A model generated the notes under the pieces. It was not told the origin of the DNA, searched no databases, and was given only the letters and a program-made list of their open reading frames with translations. The translations under genes and the position numbers were made by a program. Source: Centroscyllium fabricii (taxonomy: Eukaryota). Taken from it: 64,000 nt of DNA. Where the stretch lies: positions 63,860,001-63,924,000 of the forward strand of contig JBNRSN020000024.1 in the NCBI GenBank assembly GCA_051313645.2, in the 5' to 3' direction. Each line of letters starts with the position of its first letter. Position 1 is the first letter of the stretch. Positions 2,374 to 44,097 of the stretch are shown here, one piece after another.

Positions 2374-2847
2374 TACCTTTAACTGAGGTGAGTTGCACAG
2401 ACTCTGTCAGAACTACTTGGGCATATCAGAGAAGATGTGCCTTTGCCACCTACAATTGGCCAGGCAGATCATTCTTCAGGCTGCGAAATGTGTCCTCAAG
2501 TTTCCATCTTGCTTTACAAGCAGAACGGTAGTCTTAGGATGCTGGAACTTGAAGGCACACATGCTTATTCTTGACAGGCGTGCAAACCTGGGTGTCAGTA
2601 ATGTTTATTTCAGATGTCCAGCATCCACAGCATTTTGCTTTTGTCAGTAAGTGACTGTGCAACATACAGTTAGGTTGTTTTACAAAGGCGAGGTGTTACG
2701 GCCTTAGAAGATGTGAGTGTGGCAAAGTTTTCAATTGCATGTTGCATCTGGAAGGTGTGTCATACTGATATATGGGTATGCAAGAGATGCAGTTAAAGAA
2801 TTGTAAGGCTGTACAAGGATTTGGTAGAAGTGAGCAGTAAATGTGGA

Positions 2848-3549
2848 ACAGCTTTACACAATGAATGGCAAGACCCTAGGAAAGACAGAGGATCAGAGGG
2901 ACCTTGGTGTGCATGTACATAGATCCCTGAAGGCAGCAATACAGCTAGATAAGGTGGTTAAAAAGGCATATGGGATACTTGCCTTCATTAGCCGAGGCAT
3001 AGAATATAAGAGCAGGGAGGTTATGATGGAGCTGTACAAAACGCTGGTAAGGCCACAGCTGGAGTACTGTGTGCAGTTCTGGTCGCCACACTATAGGAAG
3101 GATGTGATTGCTTTGGAGAGGGTGCAGAGGAGATTCACCAGGATGTTACCTGGGCAGGAGCGCTTCAGCTATGAAGAAAGACTGGACAGGCTGGGGTTGT
3201 TTTCCTTGGAGCAGTGAAGGCTATGGGGGGACCTGATTGAGGTGCACAAAATTATGAGGGGCATAGATAGGGTAGATAGAAAGGAACTTTTTCCCTTGGT
3301 AGAGGGGCCAATAACCAGGGGGCATAGTTTCAAGGTGGGGGGCAGGAGGTTTAGAGGAGATTTGAGGAAGAACTTTTTCACCCAGAGGGTGGTTGGAATC
3401 TGGAACTCACTGCCTGAAAGGGTGGTAGAGTCAGGAACCCTCACAACATTCAAGACGCATTTAGATGAGCACTTGAAATGCCACAGCATACAAGGCTACG
3501 GACCAAATGCTGGAAAATGGGATTAGAATAGACTGGGCTTGATGGCCGG
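2848..3549 (+). mobile_element. CR1 LINE 3' fragment, interrupted by the Gypsy insertion (3' UTR resumes at about 8165-8212)
   Basis: The RT C-terminal motifs [15 protein letters not shown] and NFFTQRVVGIWNSLP are present. The 3' UTR is split at GCCGG. Confidence 0.9.
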
Positions 3550-6500
3550 TGTTATGGTATTGAGACTTCCGGCAGGAAGTCGGATGAACTCTGCTTATGA
3601 ACTTCCAGTGACATCACTTCCTGTACATGTCACTTCCTGTGTAGTAGTATAAATTCTGCTACTATTCAGTCTGAGATAATGCTTCTCTATGTAAATATGT
3701 TAAAACTCTCAACTCTGTAAATAGTTGATTAAAGCTTTGCTTAAAGTATTTGATGTGTAAGTTGCTTTTGTCACATCAATTTAATCAGCTACTACACTCA
3801 AAATTTTTGAAACCTTCGGACAAAAAGGAACTGAGGACCCCAGGGAATCACCCATCATGGAGAGCCTCTTCAAACCCAGAACTCTTGACCTGGATCCGAA
3901 CTCACCATCAGCCGCAAAGGTATGGAAGCACTGGTACCATACTTTTGAAAATTTCCTGGAAGAATGTGGTGCGAGTGATACTGCTAAACTCCGGCTACTG
4001 GTAAACTATGTATCCCCTAACGTGTATGAATATCTGGACAATTGGGATAACTTTAATGAAGCAATCCGAGCTCTTAAAGAACTGTATACAAAGCCACCCA
4101 ACGAGATTTATGCTAGACATTTACTGGCCACGGCCCGGCAAGGGCCGGAGGAATCTATCGGTGAATTCCTGCAGACACTGCGCAGGCTCAGTACGAACTG
4201 GAACTTTCAGGCAGCCTCGGCCGCGCTTTACCGTGAGGAAATGATCCGCGATGCCTTCATCAGCGGGATTTCCTCCCCACTGATACGCCAGCGTCTACTG
4301 GAGAGTAAGGCCCTAGAGTTGCAAAAAGCTTTCGAACTGGCTTGCTCTCTTGATCTAGCAAAAAGAAACTCAGATCTTTATCAGTGGCCCAGAGCTCGAA
4401 GTGCTGCTGTAACTTCAAACAGACCTTTCAAGGGGCCACAGGTGAACCCAATCATAGACGACTCTAGCCCTGATGAGCTTAGTTATGAGGAGGAGGATGA
4501 CCCTACACTAGCAGCCTCTTGGCAGTCCAGGAAAAACTGCTTCTTTTGTGGAGATATCTTCCACCCAAGAAAATTCTGCCCAGCCCGTAATGCAATCTGC
4601 AGCTACTGCAGCAAAAAAGGGCACTTTGCAAAGGTGTGCCAATCCAGAACTTCTGCACGAGCTAATCAAGCTAGGCCCTACAGAGCTGCTCCAATTAGGG
4701 CCTACCAGGGTGCATCAATTAGGCCCTATCAAGACGCACCAGCCAGGACCTATCAGGCTCCCACTCGAAGGAGCTCGTCTAGAATCACTGCTGCACTCTG
4801 TGCTATCATGCCAATAACAGCTGCATGCCCTCAGAATCTGGTCCAGGCAGCCACAAGGGTCACAATTAATGGACATGCTGTTGATGCCCTAATTGACTCT
4901 GGTAGCACTGACAGCTTTATTAAGGGGCAAATCGTTAAAAAATTGAAACTGCACACTTATCCATCAGACCAGGCAATTGCAATGGCCCAATCTTCTCTTA
5001 ATACTAGAATCTCGGGCTTCTGTATTGTGGACTTAACCCTTAATGGGCGCCTGTATCCCTCCACCCGTCTATCAGTCCTTAAGGATCTATGTAGTGATCT
5101 CATTCTGGGACAAGATTTCCAAAGACAACATAACAAGCTGACCATTGAGTTCGGGGGTTCTAAACCCGGACTCATTATCTCTAAATCATCATCCAAAACG
5201 CCATTTTGTGCACTGTCAGCAGCCTCTCTGGACGAACCATCGTTATTTACCAGTGTTACGCCTCAGTGCAAGCCGATAATAACTAAGTCTCGGCGCTTTA
5301 GTCAGGAGGATCGATCCTTCATTAATACAGAAATCTCTCGACTCCTGGCCAAGGACATCATTGAACCTTGTTCATCGCCTTGGCGGGCTCAGATCGTCAT
5401 TGTTAAAAACTCTTTGAAACCTCAGAAGAAACGCCTATGTATCGATTACTCTCAGACCGTTAATCTATATACAGATTTGAATGCTTACCCACTGCCACGT
5501 ATCGATGACATGGTGAATAAACTGGCTGAATATTCTGTGTTTTCAACTTATGACCTGAAGAGTGCTTACCATCAGGTACCCCTATGGGCCTCGGATAAGA
5601 AATATACAGCCTTTGAGGCTAACGGACGATTGTATCAATTTTGCCATCTCCCATTCGGAGTCAACAACGGAGTAGCTGTCTTTCAACGAGCCATGGATGG
5701 CTTGGTGAAGCAAGAAGACTTGAGGGACACTTTCCCTTATCTCGACAATATTACGGTTGCTGGCCATGACCAACAAGAACATGACGACAACCTTCGAAGA
5801 TTTCGGGATGCACTTTATCGTCGCAACCTGACTTTAAATGAAACCAAATCCGTGGAATCACAGCCAACCATTAATATTCTCAGCTACTGTGTGGGTAATG
5901 GCATCATCAAGCCTGATCCTGAAAGACTTCGGCCCCTCCAGGAGCTTCCTCCACCTAACAGTCCTGCTTCCTTGCGTCGGGCCCTCGGCCTATTTGCCTA
6001 CTATGCGAAGTGGATTCCGGATTTTTCTGACAAAATTCAACCTTTGTTGAATGCCAGGACATTTCCATTAGGAACAACGGCCATTACAGCCTTTACTACC
6101 CTTAAACAACATTTGAAGACAGCAACCCTCCACTCCATCGATGAGAACCTCCCATTCGTGGTCGAATGTGACGCTTCAGAGGTGGCGATCTCAGCTACCC
6201 TCAATCAGGAAGGTCGCCCTGTAGCTTTCATGTCTAGGACCCTACAGGGTGCCGAAGTGCACTATCCACCGGTGGAAAAAGAAGCCACGGCCATCATTGA
6301 GGCTGTACGAAAATGGAACCATTTTGTAGCTCGCCGACACTTCACGCTGATAACGGACCAGCGATCAGTAGCGTTCATGCTGGACAACCGCAAGAGAACC
6401 AAAGTCAAGAACAATAAAATACAACTGTGGAGGATGGAATTGGCCTCTTTTGGCTATACTATTCACTATCGCCCTGGTAAAGATAATGTGGCCGCGGACA

Positions 6501-8164
6501 CGCTTACTCGAGCATTCTGCGCTGCTACATCACCCTCCACTCTGGCAGATATTCATGATGGATTATGTCATCCTGGTGTGACACGTATGTTACGTTTTGT
6601 AAGGTCACGAAATCTCCCATTCTCAACCGGAGACATCAAGAAAATGTGTTCAGAATGCAAAACCTGTGCTGAGCTAAAACCCCACTTTTTCCGGCCCCCG
6701 GATGGTGTACTTATACATGCGACACAACCAATGCAACGACTGAGCATTGATTTTAAGGGCCCAGTACCCTCGTCCACTAGGAACATATATCTGCTTACGA
6801 TGGTTGACGAATATTCACGTTTCCCATTCGCCTTCCCCTGCTCTAATATGCTGTCTTCCACAGTAATCAATTGTCTCGAGCAGGTATTCATGCTCTGTGG
6901 CATGCCAGCTTACATCCATTCAGATCGGGGTCCATCTTTCATGTCCACTGAACTTAAGGACTACCTCTCGGAAAGAGGTATCGCAACAAGCAAAACAACA
7001 CCATACCACCCCATCGGTAACGGCCAGGTAGAAAGATATAATGGCATCATATGGAACTCTGTACGCCTTGCCCTGAAATCCCAGGGTCTACCCAACCAGC
7101 AATGGGAGATGGTGTTACCAGATGCATTGCACTCCATATGGTCCTTGCTTTCCACAGCCACGAACACGACGCCTCATGAACGGTTCTTCAGTTTCCAGCG
7201 TCGCTCATCATATGGAGCATCACTCCCTTCATGGCTGACCACTCCAGGGCCCGTATTGCTCCGGAGATATGTCCGAACCTCCAAGCATGACCCTCTTGTG
7301 GATGAGGTAGAACTAACGGAGGTCAACCCCACCTACGCTCACATACGACACCCTGACGGACGAGAGTCTACAGTATCATTGCGGGACCTGGCACCCTGCC
7401 CATCAGGACCTAGAGGGTCATCTAGGGATAATACCCTACCGGGAACCTCCAGAGAACCACTGGGTACCACTCTTCAGGACCCCGATCAGGCACCAATGAC
7501 CTTTGAGCCGGTAGGATCCCGCACTCGGAGCTTCGACTCACCTGGTACCTCATTCCAGGATGCTGCTCAATCCTCGACTGACACGGAGCCCATAGGGGCT
7601 CGTACGCGGAGTCATGATCCTCCCAGTGCCCCACGCCAAAATGCCAATGGGCCATCGACAAGCTTGGTACCTTCTCCCGACCAAGGGCAGATCAACTCTG
7701 AACCTGTTGGATCTCGCACACGGAACCATGATTTCCACAACCCATCGCCGGGTAATCCAGGCCATGTTGGATTTGACCCAGATTCGAAGACCCGCAAACG
7801 GCCCAGTAACTCAGACATTGACCATCAAGACAGTCTACCAACCCAAGAGAGCGAACTTAAACGTATGCGGCTCCTCCTCATACATCTACTTCAGAATATT
7901 TGATTTCTGCCTCATAATCTTCTAGGAGGGAAGAATGTAATGATATTGAGACTTCCGGCAGGAAGTCGGATGAACTCTGCTTATGAACTTCCAGTGACAT
8001 CACTTCCTGTACATGTCACTTCCTGTGTAGTAGTATAAATTCTGCTACTATTCAGTCTGAGATAATGCTTCTCTATGTAAATATGTTAAAACTCTCAACT
8101 CTGTAAATAGCTGATTAAAGCTTTGCTTAAAGTATTTGATGTGTAAGTTGCTTTTGTCACATCA
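3550..8164 (+). mobile_element. Full-length Ty3/Gypsy LTR retrotransposon
   Basis: Two 229-bp TG..CA LTRs (3550-3778 and 7936-8164) show 3 differences by eye. There is a 5-bp TSD GCCGG, a polypurine tract AGGAGGGAAGAA at 7924-7935, and a single gag-pol ORF. Confidence 0.97.
3857..7903 (+). CDS. Gypsy gag-pol polyprotein (1348 aa)
   Basis: Domains in PR-RT-RH-IN order: two CCHC-type knuckles (CFFCGDIFHPRKFC, CSYCSKKGHFAKVC), protease LIDSGS, RT (YDLKSAYHQ, LPFGV, YLDN), RNase H (ECDAS, TDQRS), and integrase HHCC plus D,D,E (SIDFKG, HSDRG, GQVER). Confidence 0.95.
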   Translation: MESLFKPRTLDLDPNSPSAAKVWKHWYHTFENFLEECGASDTAKLRLLVNYVSPNVYEYLDNWDNFNEAIRALKELYTKPPNEIYARHLLATARQGPEESIGEFLQTLRRLSTNWNFQAASAALYREEMIRDAFISGISSPLIRQRLLESKALELQKAFELACSLDLAKRNSDLYQWPRARSAAVTSNRPFKGPQVNPIIDDSSPDELSYEEEDDPTLAASWQSRKNCFFCGDIFHPRKFCPARNAICSYCSKKGHFAKVCQSRTSARANQARPYRAAPIRAYQGASIRPYQDAPARTYQAPTRRSSSRITAALCAIMPITAACPQNLVQAATRVTINGHAVDALIDSGSTDSFIKGQIVKKLKLHTYPSDQAIAMAQSSLNTRISGFCIVDLTLNGRLYPSTRLSVLKDLCSDLILGQDFQRQHNKLTIEFGGSKPGLIISKSSSKTPFCALSAASLDEPSLFTSVTPQCKPIITKSRRFSQEDRSFINTEISRLLAKDIIEPCSSPWRAQIVIVKNSLKPQKKRLCIDYSQTVNLYTDLNAYPLPRIDDMVNKLAEYSVFSTYDLKSAYHQVPLWASDKKYTAFEANGRLYQFCHLPFGVNNGVAVFQRAMDGLVKQEDLRDTFPYLDNITVAGHDQQEHDDNLRRFRDALYRRNLTLNETKSVESQPTINILSYCVGNGIIKPDPERLRPLQELPPPNSPASLRRALGLFAYYAKWIPDFSDKIQPLLNARTFPLGTTAITAFTTLKQHLKTATLHSIDENLPFVVECDASEVAISATLNQEGRPVAFMSRTLQGAEVHYPPVEKEATAIIEAVRKWNHFVARRHFTLITDQRSVAFMLDNRKRTKVKNNKIQLWRMELASFGYTIHYRPGKDNVAADTLTRAFCAATSPSTLADIHDGLCHPGVTRMLRFVRSRNLPFSTGDIKKMCSECKTCAELKPHFFRPPDGVLIHATQPMQRLSIDFKGPVPSSTRNIYLLTMVDEYSRFPFAFPCSNMLSSTVINCLEQVFMLCGMPAYIHSDRGPSFMSTELKDYLSERGIATSKTTPYHPIGNGQVERYNGIIWNSVRLALKSQGLPNQQWEMVLPDALHSIWSLLSTATNTTPHERFFSFQRRSSYGASLPSWLTTPGPVLLRRYVRTSKHDPLVDEVELTEVNPTYAHIRHPDGRESTVSLRDLAPCPSGPRGSSRDNTLPGTSREPLGTTLQDPDQAPMTFEPVGSRTRSFDSPGTSFQDAAQSSTDTEPIGARTRSHDPPSAPRQNANGPSTSLVPSPDQGQINSEPVGSRTRNHDFHNPSPGNPGHVGFDPDSKTRKRPSNSDIDHQDSLPTQESELKRMRLLLIHLLQNI

Positions 8165-9010
8165 GCCGGCGTGGGTGCAATGGGCCTCTTTCTGTGCTGT
8201 ATAACTCCATGAGCTTGGCATTTAGTCTTGGGCCAACTGTCAGATACACAATACTGTTGTGTAGTCTTTCCTTTCAGATTCCTTTAAGTGTGCCATTTTC
8301 TTATATATCTGTTCCCAGGTGCTGCAGGTAGTGTACACAGCATTGAGCCTGCCACCATGGATTGGTGCACTGAAGTACCAAACAAGTCCACCCTTCATTC
8401 ACCAGCTCCTCTGCAGGTCCAGTTGGCTATCCAAGGAGTTAGATGCTGTGCCACTCCATCATTTTCCCACTGTGCCTCCACACTGGGTTTCCTTTCACTT
8501 ACACTTCATTTATGTTTTGTTACATCTCTGTTCTCCTTCGGCATTGGCCAAAGCTGAGAAATATCTAAAATGAATGTTGATCCTTGATAAAGGCTGAATC
8601 AATATTCACCTCCCACGTGCAGCCATTTACCTTTAAGTGTACACATTCCTTTAAATTGAAAGTGATTGCCATATTTTCCACTTCCCCCTTAGGCTTGCTC
8701 CTGGCACAAGGCCAGAGGAGAGGCAGTTATGATAAATTATTGAAATGAGCTGACAGCAGAAAATTGATGCAGTCAGTTCACTTTGCTGCTGGTTGGCTGC
8801 GCTCCAGCAATGTAGAGGCCGATTTTCCCACTGGAGGCGAGATGGAGGCAGGTTTCAGTTTGGGTGGGTTTGAAAAATTAGCGATTTTTTCATGATTAGC
8901 CACTTGATTTCAGAGGTGTGGGCTGCCCTTGCTCAATTAGTGTTTTGAGACTGAAAGTCGCCTCTGTTGACAGCAACCCCAAGAAGGGGCGGTGTGCTGA
9001 TCCTGCCAAA

Positions 9011-11773: not shown

Positions 11774-14700
11774 CAGGAAACTCTTTGGTTTCCGGCACCG
11801 ACGGGTCTGGCGTGTTGCCGGTTGATCAAAAATTCCAGATGATAGAGAGGGTTCTCTACCGAGGCTATTTTTGATAAAGAAAAATTTAAAATCAAGAAAT
11901 GTGCAGTATACAGTAATTGGGTACTCACCTACAGAATGTTGTGTTAAATGGATGGTGGTAGATGCTTGATTAAGTACAGTACTGCCAGTTGAGGTTAATG
12001 CAATGCAATGTCTACCAGCAGCGTGGGAGACACAGTGTATTGTTTTCTATGTGCGTTCAACTACGACACATTAATGAAGGAGAATGTTTTTTAATGCAAC
12101 GAGGAAAAGGGGGGAGAACCAAGGACACAGGGAAGGGAAAGGGGTCTGAAATGCGCCTACTTCAATGCAAGAAGTATAAGGAACAAGGCAGGGGAGTTAG
12201 GGGCATGGATGGCGGCATGGGACTACGATGTGGTGGCCATTACAGAGACATGGCTGGAGCAGGGACAGGACTGGATGCTTGGGGTCCCGGGATACAGAAG
12301 CTTCTGGAGGAGCAGGGAGGGAGGAAAGCGCGGGGGGGGGAGTAGCACTGCTGGTCAAGGACAACGTGACGGCTACAGAAAAAAACTTTGAGGGGGACAC
12401 ACGAACGGAGGTAGTATGGGCGGAGCTTAGGAATAGGAAGGGGGCGGTAACGTTAGTGGGAGTCTTCTATAGACCACCAAATAGTAGCAGGGAGGTGGAG
12501 GAGGAAATTGCGCGACAAATAAAGGAAAGATGTGGGGGACAGAGGGTAGTTATAATGGGAGATTTCAATTTCCCTAATATAGACTGGAATCTAGGTAGGT
12601 CAAGGAGTGCAGAGGGTGAGATTTTCCTACAATGCATACAGGAAGGTTTCCTGACACAATACGTGGAGGAACCAACAAGGGGGAAGGCAACGTTGGACCT
12701 GGTTCTGGGAAATGAACCAGGCCAAGTGGTAGAACTGGGGGTAAGGGAGCACTTTGGGGACAGTGACCACAATTCGGTGACGTTCACAATAGTAATGGAG
12801 AAGGGTAGGAGCAGGAGGCAGGGTAAGGTATACAGCTGGGGGAGGGGAAATTACGCCAGGGTTAGGCACAATTTAGCTAACACCAATTGGGAACGGGAAC
12901 TTGCGGGGAGAGGAACGGAAGAAAAATGGAGAGTGTTCAGGGAGAAAATTTTGAAAGCCCTGGATAAGCATGTCCCGAGTAGGATGGGAAAAAAGGGTAA
13001 GATGAGAGAACCATGGATCACGAAAGAGGTAGAACAATTAGTAAAAAAGAAGAAGGAAGCATATGATAAAATGAGAAAACAGAGTACAGAAGGGGCGGGA
13101 AGGGAGTACAAAGAAGCAAGGAAAAATCTGAAAAATGGGCTAAGGAAGGCAAAGGGAGGGCACGAGAAGGCATTAGCGAGAAGGATAAAGGAGAACCCTA
13201 AGGCTTTCTATGCGTACGTAAGAAACAAAAGGATGACTAGGGTAAGAGTAGGGCCGATCAAAGACAGCAAGGGAGAAACGTGCACGGAGCCAGAGGAAAT
13301 TGGGGAAGCACTAAACGAATATTTTGCATCCGTGTTCACAAGGGAGAGGGAACAAAAAGTAGAGGGGGAGTTCAAGATACAAGAGGAAACGATGGGGGAA
13401 GTAAATATCCAGAGGGGGGAGGTATTAGATATTTTGGAGAAACTAAAGGTAGACAAATCTCCTGGGCCAGACGGGATATATCCAAGGATTCTCTGGGAGG
13501 CGAGGAACGAAATCGCAGAGCCACTGACCTCTATCTTTAGATCATCGCTATCCTCGGGGATAGTCCCTGAGGACTGGAGAGAGGCGAATGTGGCTCCCAT
13601 ATTTAAAAAGGGGAAAAGGGACGTGCCAGGGAACTACAGACCAGTCAGCCTCACCTCAGTGGTTGGAAAGATGATGGAAAGGGTCCTGAGGGACAAGATC
13701 TACGACCATCTAGAAAGGGGCAAATTAATCAGAAGCAGTCAGCACGGTTTTGTTAAGGGTAAATCGTGTCTGACCAACCTGATAGAATTCTTTGAAGAGT
13801 GTGGACGAGGGAAAGGCGGTTGATGTCATATATATGGACTTCAGCAAGGCGTTTGACAAGGTCCCGCACGGTCGGCTCATGAAGAAAGTAAGGAGTTGCA
13901 GGGTAAGCAACAAAGTGGTGGGATGGATTGAGAACTGGCTGGCTCAGAGGAAGCAGAGGGTAGTGGTAGAAGGCCAATACTCGAGCTGGAGACCGGTCAC
14001 CAGCGGGGTACCACAGGGGTCGGTGTTGGGGCCACTACTGTTTGTAATCTTCATCAATGACTTGGAGGAGGGGGCTGAGGGGTGGGTCAGCAAATTTGCA
14101 GATGACACAAAGATTGGGGGAGTAGTGGATGAGGAGGAAGGGAGTAGAACGATTCAGAGGGATATAGACAGGATGCAGAGCTGGGCTGAAGAATGGCAAA
14201 TGGAGTTCAACACGGGGAAATGCGAGGTGATGCACTTCGGCAGGGCAAATAGGAAGAGGGAATATAGGGTCAACGGCAGGATCCTGAGTGAAGCAGAGGA
14301 GCAAAGGGATCTGGGAGTATATGTACACAGATCACTGAAGGCTGCCACCCAGGTGGACAAAGCAGTAAAAAAGGCCTATGGTGTATTGGCCTTCATCAAC
14401 AGGGGAATAGAGTTTAAGAACCGGGAGGTCATGCTGCAGTTGTACAGGTCACTGGTGAGACCACATGTGGAGTACTGTGTGCAGTTCTGGGCACCGTACT
14501 ACAGGAGGGATGTGGAGGCACTGGAAAGAGTGCAGAGGAGATTCACCAGGATGCTGCCGGGAATGGGGGGAAAGTCATACGAGGAACGGTTAAGGGAACT
14601 GGGACTCTTCTCCCTGGAACGAAGAAGGAAGAGGGGGGACCTGATAGAGATGTATAAAATGATGAAGGGGATCGACAGAGTAAATGTGCAAAGACTGTTT

Positions 14701-42635: not shown

Positions 42636-42833
42636 CTAGGCCATGATGTGTAAAGGTGGTTGGGAGAAATTGAGATAGAGGATCAGCCATGATCATATTG
42701 AATGGTGGAGCAGGCTCGAAGGGCCGAATAGCCGACTCCTGCTCCTATTTTTCTAAGTTTCCAAATGCAACACTATACATCTGCAGCTTAATAATCTACA
42801 GTAAAATAGGGATTTTGAACAGCAATATCCTGC

Positions 42834-43981
42834 CTGTTATCTTTGATGTCAACAACATGATCTTTCAGTTCTTTCACCATAATCTTCAAGCCAAGCGTAT
42901 ATGGATCTTCTTCTGGAAAGTTGCAGTACCGTGGATTATTCTTCATCAGATATTGTGCCAGGAAATTAATGGGGTTAAAGTAAGGGTGTGATGTCCCCAA
43001 CACAGTCAAACCTTTCTTTTCAACTTCCATTAGCAGCTTCTCTAGTCCCGGAATCAGAGTGGGAAACAACTTTTCCAGTAAGTATACACGATTCTGCACT
43101 GTCATTTTATTTTCATTAAACCATTCCTTTGTCAACAAATCCTTTGGGACCTTCTTTTCGAAATGATCTTTTTCATGTTTGTGCTTTTTGCTAGACATTG
43201 ACTTCTGCTCCTGTAACTTCAGCACTCGCTTTGCTACTTTTCGTTCAAACATCCTCTTCCAAAGTAACTTTTCCCCTTCGCTATCATCATCATCCTCTGT
43301 ATAATCTATTGTTAAACCTTCAATTACTGAAGTCTGAAAAGAAGCCCTTTTACCTTCATTTCTATATTTAGGCATAGATGGCTCATGTATGACAGAACTA
43401 AGAGACGTTCTCGTCCTTGAGGTTTTAGTAATGTCGCTATGGTCTACTATATGGTCAATATTGCCATGTTTATCTGTTACATTCTCTGACATTGAGACCC
43501 CTTTCTCCGTAAAATGGTGTAAAGTTTTACTGCTATGTTCATCTGCTACATCTTTAATTGCTTCAGTTGCAAGAGAAACAATTCTCGTTGCAGTTTGATG
43601 AATAATGTTGCCACCTTCATCTGCTGCACCTGCCATTGCGCCGGTTCCAAGAGGAGCGTTTCTCTTTGAAGCTTCATCAAATGTTTGACTCCATTCTTCA
43701 TCTGCTGCACGCTCAATTGCTCCCGCTCCAAGAGATGCACTTCTCTTGGAACCTTGAGGAAACATTTTACTGCCATCTTTAACTGCTGCATCTTCAATTG
43801 TTCCCGGTTTAATAGACACCCTTCCCTTTGCTGCTTCAGGGGTAGCTGTGGTTTGATCTTCTTCATTAACCATTGCTGTATTCGGAGAATTGCTTTGATT
43901 CGCGATGACCCCTTGATCTACATTTGCATCTAACAAAGCTCCAGAAGCTATTTCATCTTCATCTTCAGAATTCGTAGCCAT
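42834..43981 (-). CDS. EFCAB5: EFCAB5 first coding exon (EF-hand calcium-binding domain-containing protein 5, N-terminal region)
   Basis: The peptide EWFN..YLLEKLFPTLIPGLEKLLMEVEKK..FNPINFLAQYLMKNNPRY matches the Dpy-30/RIIa-like segment of EFCAB5. There is an acceptor TTTCAG| at 43997 and the ATG lies in a GTCATGG context. Confidence 0.88.
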
Positions 43982-44097
43982 GACGTACTTAATTTGCTGA
44001 AAGAAGCATTCATTGTGTTAAAATAACATGCATCAATTCTGGTAGCTTACAGTACAGTAAAATCGTAATTGGTTTCAGGTATTATTTGCAATATAAT

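Follow-up and report, generated by a model that had tools for sequence, protein, structure and literature searches.

A Gypsy Retrotransposon of Centroscyllium fabricii Predicted to Prime Reverse Transcription with Its Own LTR-derived RNA

The stretch of Centroscyllium fabricii DNA analyzed here, referred to below as the window, is 64,000 nucleotides long and carries near its start a young Gypsy LTR retrotransposon that, to judge from its sequence, is intact and belongs to a clade outside the chromoviruses. All features of the element lie on the forward strand. Two LTRs of 229 nt, delimited by comparison of the pair, are located at 3550..3778 (TG...CA, with the terminus CATCA) and 7936..8164; they differ at three positions (3553, 3557, and 3725) and are flanked by a 5-bp target site duplication, GCCGG, which is present on the left at 3545..3549 and recurs on the right at 8165..8169. 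Between the LTRs lie one open gag-pol frame of 1348 aa (3857..7903), identified as an ORF and through Pfam, and a polypurine tract at 7924..7935.

Pfam analysis of the gag-pol frame revealed the domain arrangement of Gypsy (protease, RT, RNase H, integrase), and the best match of the element protein in the PDB was Ty3 Gag-Pol (E 6e-57). Neither a chromodomain nor SH3_Tf2-1 was detected in the window ORF by Pfam, in agreement with the first-pass annotation, which had described the element as lacking a chromodomain. The RT of the window element reads YLDN in place of YxDD. Across the clade, this catalytic motif (window 5342-5956) is YLDN in most members and YLDD in a few. The C terminus carries a low-complexity extension of ∼200 aa (window 7301-7900) with repeated G(S/A)RTR motifs and no Pfam match, which makes the window ORF longer than the 1200-1230 aa usual among its relatives.

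The insertion site is apparently the 3′ tail of a LINE-like repeat (window 2834-3549 and 8165-8230), a paralogous stretch of which lies at 14272-14561; Pfam returned nothing useful for this flanking repeat, which we take to resemble CR1-type LINEs. Elsewhere in the window, a 66-bp tandem array of ∼9 copies (6-731), open in one frame for 232 aa, gave a weak, repeated Pfam score for SPMIP5 with no passing stretch. On the reverse strand, a 409-aa frame (window 42788-44017) is possibly a host exon; an 81-bp repeat lies in it, as does a Dpy-30 motif (E 2.5e-06).

The mature 3′ end of a tRNA requires a primer-binding site (PBS) containing TGG, and no TGG follows the 5′ LTR of the window element. In its place, one base (A3779) after the CA of the LTR, is a 12-nt PBS (3780..3791), TTTAATCAGCTA, which is the exact reverse complement of 8108-8119 in the 3′ LTR. 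Both observations bear out the first-pass annotation, which had claimed a PBS without TGG and complementary to the element's own LTR. The corresponding arm in the 5′ LTR (3722..3733), defined by folding and alignment, is the predicted 3′ end of a self-primer. Because position 3725 is T in the 5′ LTR and C in the 3′ LTR, the 5′ helix contains one G:U pair. As had also been claimed, the helix covers an ATTAAA hexamer (3728-3733 within the 5′ arm and 8114-8119 in the 3′ LTR), which is the sole AATAAA or ATTAAA of the window LTR.

A 12-nt run was found in 0 of 3000 dinucleotide-shuffled LTRs, the best run being 11 nt, in 3 of 3000. In the predicted fold of the segment 3722-3800, the helix closes a three-way junction (z = −3.39; 0 of 200 shuffles equally stable), and ensemble folding gave the helix a mean pair probability of 0.94-0.95; the folding z of the longer stretch 3675-3820 was just −1.51. 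Within the junction, fold prediction places a small hairpin at 3734..3747, stacked on the primer helix next to a predicted cut at 3733/3734, and a U5 stem at 3750..3779, in which 3750-3757 would pair with 3772-3779 beside the PBS helix. The latter segment is also a GU-rich tract downstream of ATTAAA.

T3725 was absent from all 29 other close copies of the element, and in the three other T:G copies checked (3/3) the T was likewise confined to the 5′ LTR. The wobble is therefore a private mutation of this 5′ LTR copy: the G:U pair that the first-pass annotation had pointed out is present, and G:U as a family feature was rejected, the T being private to single 5′ LTRs. Among 30 close 5′ junctions, chosen by similarity, 26 pair at 12/12 positions, three have one G:U, and one has a mismatch. 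When the variable position was left free, at least 2163 junction matches were found genome-wide, against 0 for the reversed control. The variable pair among the first 100 matches listed was C:G in 84, T:A in 14, T:G in 1, and C:A in 1. Junctions with T in the LTR numbered 348, and the PBS carried A in 97 and G in 3 of the first 100 of these listed; only 8 junctions with C in the LTR had no G in the PBS. That LTR-T goes with PBS-A and LTR-C with PBS-G indicates that a sister subgroup carries a compensatory pair, which may be a single historical event. Some clade copies lie one element length (∼4.4 kb) apart (G000:C711:471119165-471125781 and G000:C1:331995331-331999783), a spacing that suggests tandem arrays with a shared LTR.

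The best 120 protein relatives share 54-89% identity with the element over RT-RH-IN, and those with named hosts come from a catshark, a tunicate (Clavelina), a mussel (Mytilus), two crustaceans, and a nematode; neither a chromodomain nor SH3_Tf2-1 was listed for any of the 120. IMG/VR contained no relative of the element, and the ESM Atlas returned generic Gag clusters. Loci were sampled from 80 metagenome loci and from other families of the C. fabricii genome. From 148 RT matches, 63 with an LTR pair were obtained; one of these was a duplicate and 8 had no clean CA terminus, and their removal gave 40 clade elements (26 from the C. fabricii genome and 14 from metagenomes, 10 of the latter from one record series), 7 chromodomain-type elements, and 7 tRNA-type controls. 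The control classes were assigned in this analysis, and the controls are the genome's own elements rather than named references; the tRNA-type elements are presumably Mag-like.

Among the 40 clade elements, all having both LTRs, 39 contain a perfect run of 10-17 nt between PBS and LTR, mostly as a helix of 12-14 nt, and TGG was found in 0 of 40. By comparison, all seven tRNA-type controls have TGG and self-pair over 4-6 nt. Chromodomain-type elements of the same genome, which served as a positive control, self-pair over 10-11 nt in 6 of 7 cases. A looser scan recovered the pairing in 5 of 7 clade loci dropped earlier; of the 24 extra loci scanned in all, 14 had a run of at least 10 nt and 10, some of which may be truncated or decayed, had none.

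The clade elements provided 22 distinct PBS 12-mers, 14 of them from the C. fabricii genome. In these, 260 of 264 cells (pairs in related variants, and so non-independent events) were Watson-Crick and 0 were G:U, with the better-pairing LTR copy scored for each variant, a choice biased against G:U and mismatches. Changes on both sides of the helix were observed at 8 of 12 positions, and three of the 22 variants have 1-2 mismatches. In contrast with the 260 real cells, permuted partners gave a mean of 186 and a maximum of 214 Watson-Crick cells in 10,000 rounds, and the permutation, together with the LTR shuffles, rules out a chance origin of the pairing. Compensatory LTR/PBS changes, which had been proposed as a check on the first-pass reading, are present both in the family and across the 22 variants. 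On these alignments, self-pairing is clade-wide and conserved by compensatory change.

The register of the helix is equally regular. Its onset is one base after CA in 22/22 variants, the spacer base is A in 22/22, and the register equals that of TGG in the tRNA-type controls (7/7). The start of minus-strand synthesis sets the right end of the LTR; the one-base register is therefore what a primer requires. The helix lies 34-60 nt from the LTR end, and its LTR arm is followed by GCC in 18 of 22 variants. A stem beside the PBS was predicted in some, not all, of the 22. In Tf1 a U5-IR-like stem is reportedly required, to which the stem predicted beside the PBS of the window element may correspond.

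To read the promoter, TATA and initiator consensus sequences were used. A predicted TATA box, TATAAA, lies at 3648..3653, 74 nt upstream of the helix; TATAA(A/G) is present at −71 to −74 from the helix in 10/10 subgroup copies. A YR dinucleotide 30 nt downstream marks the predicted transcription start at 3678; the window has YR alone at +30, with no full initiator. In 12 of the 14 C. fabricii variants, apparently largely one sub-branch, a TATA-like octamer occurs 68-72 nt upstream of the helix and is followed 28-31 nt later by a full initiator; one LTR is truncated. A clear TATA at either place was found in 0 of 8 metagenome variants. The first-pass annotation had placed the start near 3720, and a weaker AT-rich motif at −30 (3690-3699) would fit a start near 3722. 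As a conserved TATA, this motif was rejected, since 8 of 10 subgroup copies depart from it and yet retain the TATA at 3648. With a conserved TATA ∼70 nt upstream of the helix, which predicts a start at ∼3678, a start near 3720 is unsupported. The promoter layout points to a paired stretch that would lie ∼40-44 nt downstream of the predicted start rather than at the very 5′ end of the RNA, and transcription from near 3678 would yield a capped primer of ∼56 nt instead of one made of the first 12 nt.

These observations can be accommodated in the following model, in which the window element primes minus-strand DNA with its own RNA, as a cut capped fragment of ∼56 nt, and not with a tRNA. We consider this model probable, and a primer derived from the LTR in some manner very likely. 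Pol II would start ∼30 nt after the TATA at 3648, near 3678, and 3722-3733 would fold onto 3780-3791, closing a 46-nt loop. ATTAAA would thereby be buried at the 5′ end only; the 3′ end has no second PBS, and the signal in the 3′ LTR would therefore stay free. A cut directly after AAA (3733/3734), by analogy with Tf1 probably made by the element's RNase H, would leave the capped fragment with its 3′-OH on the PBS. RT would then copy U5 and a short stretch of R past the cut before jumping to the 3′ R. Plus-strand synthesis would re-copy the PBS from the primer and so keep PBS and LTR strictly complementary over evolution, which would explain the lack of wobble pairs in the clade. Against a cut at 3733, it would leave only ∼10-30 nt of R for strand transfer. 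A marker-linkage test of the position of strand transfer gave 1 match in one class and 53 in the other, which fits stepwise subfamily evolution.

The alternative that survives best, although we judge it unlikely, is that the LTR-derived primer stems from a different copy of the 12-mer, located at the 3′ end of genomic RNA or in a short, prematurely polyadenylated LTR transcript acting in trans, and is trimmed from the poly(A) tail back to the helix end with no internal cut. Such a primer predicts the same covariation and register, would leave ∼44 nt of R for strand transfer, and accounts for the position of the paired stretch at the poly(A) signal, 34-60 nt from the LTR end and not, as in Tf1, at the predicted start. 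However, only 46 nt separate the 5′ copy from the PBS, to which it is bound in the folded ensemble (at the pair probability of 0.94-0.95 given above), and the known precedent, in passages of PMC7175516, is a cut in cis.

In 20 of the 22 variants, the helix ends on AATAAA or ATTAAA, and those LTRs hold no other hexamer of this kind. These 20 variants would fit a helix that masks the 5′ poly(A) signal, and the masking strand is present at the 5′ end alone. It is nonetheless improbable, in our view, that masking of the poly(A) signal in the 5′ LTR is all that the helix does, with priming provided by some host RNA or another route. A helix that served masking alone need not start one base after CA, as it does in every variant, nor avoid G:U (0/264, with the better LTR copy scored), and no other PBS is evident in clade elements (TGG 0/40). 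Furthermore, helices without the hexamer still pair in register (L035, L038, L039, L040, and L087), so the poly(A) signal is less well conserved than the pairing. In U5, 3′ of the hexamer, 13 of 22 variants have a splice-donor-like motif (window 3757-3762, L114, L163, L206, and L209-L230), which may be a GU-rich downstream element or a U1 site. By eye, CTTACC repeats, the reverse complement of a splice donor, were seen upstream of the helix in the LTRs of L033, L035, L055, and L085.

A search of the PBS against tRNAs, likewise suggested by the first-pass annotation, gave no match within a limited test comprising the 12-mer followed by a B-box and two tRNA types. The B-box search, which covers only primers ending 8-30 nt before the B-box, gave 9 matches in the genome versus 23 for the reversed control, and 0 of the 9 were tRNA genes. 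Rfam, with 17 loci passed through ARAGORN, identified only Lys(TTT) and Cys(GCA) as host tRNA types; these, the sole host tRNA types compared directly, paired with the PBS in 4-nt runs only. Rfam otherwise gave sub-threshold matches only, none near its gathering score. The covariation between PBS and LTR is a stronger argument against a tRNA than this partial tRNA search. Half-tRNA priming exists in Copia lineages, according to parts of PMC6317226 and PMC10886601, and the host tRNA set was screened in part, but priming at 3780-3791 by a tRNA half or other small host RNA, with the LTR match secondary, is very improbable, since the PBS shifts at 8 of 12 positions together with the LTR, which a fixed host RNA cannot explain, and since the B-box, tRNA, and Rfam comparisons also speak against it.

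The first-pass annotation had cited the Tf1/sushi group as a parallel; a link to that group is not upheld by the following comparisons. In a 26-row RT tree (unrooted, RT alone, rows hand-picked), the clade and the chromodomain elements formed separate groups, each with support of 100/100, and union of the two was disfavored (p-AU 0.032; RT alone, unrooted, tested after the first tree had been seen). RT identity between the window element and the chromodomain-type elements is ∼24-33%, and a match to Chromo is also present in 11 of the 12 control frames, which had been selected for SH3_Tf2-1. The Tf1/sushi chromoviruses carry a chromodomain and SH3_Tf2-1, whereas the window element has neither. 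The helices differ as well, that of the chromodomain-type elements being 147-219 nt from the LTR end with no poly(A) hexamer and that of the clade 34-60 nt from it with the hexamer. Given the absent chromodomain, the separate RT branch, and the p-AU value, an origin of the putative self-priming independent of Tf1/sushi is favored, not proven.

Old chromodomain-type (sushi-like) elements of the C. fabricii genome (L156, L160, L161, L165, L168, L169, and L183) are also without TGG. With their pairing (6/7) 147-219 nt from the LTR end, self-pairing occurs in two distinct Gypsy lineages of one genome.

The LTRs of Cigr-1 measure ∼245 bp and its single ORF ∼1210 aa, which resembles the window clade, and we assume Cigr-1 to be a lead for the name of the clade. 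Tunicate and mollusc hosts are shared, as relatives of the window element are present in Clavelina and Mytilus. The Cigr-1 clade of Ciona intestinalis and the MolGy clades of molluscs are likewise non-chromovirus Gypsy, as described in portions of PMC6238403, the main text of which contains 0 occurrences of “PBS” or “primer binding.”

Tf1 and Tf2 of Schizosaccharomyces pombe and Tj1 of S. japonicus have, like the clade, a PBS complementary to their own 5′ LTR RNA. The first 11 bases of Tf1 RNA are cut off and used as the primer (excerpts of PMC7175516); the Tf1 helix, of 11 nt, is similar in length to the 12-14 nt found in most of the clade, and the PBS of Tf1 has also been found copied into the cDNA at its 3′ end (excerpts of PMC11042837). 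Cleavage and priming have been demonstrated for Tf1, whereas for the window element they are deduced from sequence. Vertebrate Tf1/sushi chromoviruses and the Tcn1 clade are likewise Gypsy elements with the order gag-PR-RT-RH-IN and no tRNA PBS, and the TAR lineage of plant Ty1/copia (Houba and Osr-1) provides a self-complementary PBS outside the chromoviruses (both from portions of PMC6317226), although TAR differs in superfamily, domain order, and its plant hosts. A repeated origin of self-priming has thus already been proposed.

In the parts of the literature covered, self-priming is stated for Tf1, Tf2, and Tj1 and for fungal and vertebrate Tf1/sushi elements with predictions for Tcn1 and for the TAR lineage of plant Copia (PMC6317226, PMC4600332, PMC7175516, PMC6934838, PMC5006619, PMC5443660, and PMC2864245). 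No report of self-priming in a non-chromovirus animal Gypsy element was found in the portions covered of PMC3601003, PMC6238403, PMC10886601, and PMC2582038, a scope that lies outside Repbase and GyDB. Self-priming of the window clade would fall outside the group in which it is known, and prior notice elsewhere is possible.

A wider proposal is put forward tentatively, as one that may well prove wrong in part: that priming without a tRNA arose, separately from Tf1/sushi, in a Gypsy clade spread across metazoans, that a single helix conceals the poly(A) signal of the 5′ LTR and at the same time marks where the primer ends, and that the primer is a capped RNA of ∼55 nt ending in AAUAAA or AUUAAA rather than the first 11 nt. 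If this were true, tRNA-free priming would be a solution reached more than once, here in a second and abundant clade of animal Gypsy elements. Its elements would be expected to evade control exerted at the PBS by tRNA fragments, and would probably be overlooked by LTR finders for which a tRNA PBS is mandatory. The prediction specifies the cut site and the length of the primer to the nucleotide, and a primer coupled to the poly(A) signal would account in a simple way for a 5′ LTR escaping premature polyadenylation.
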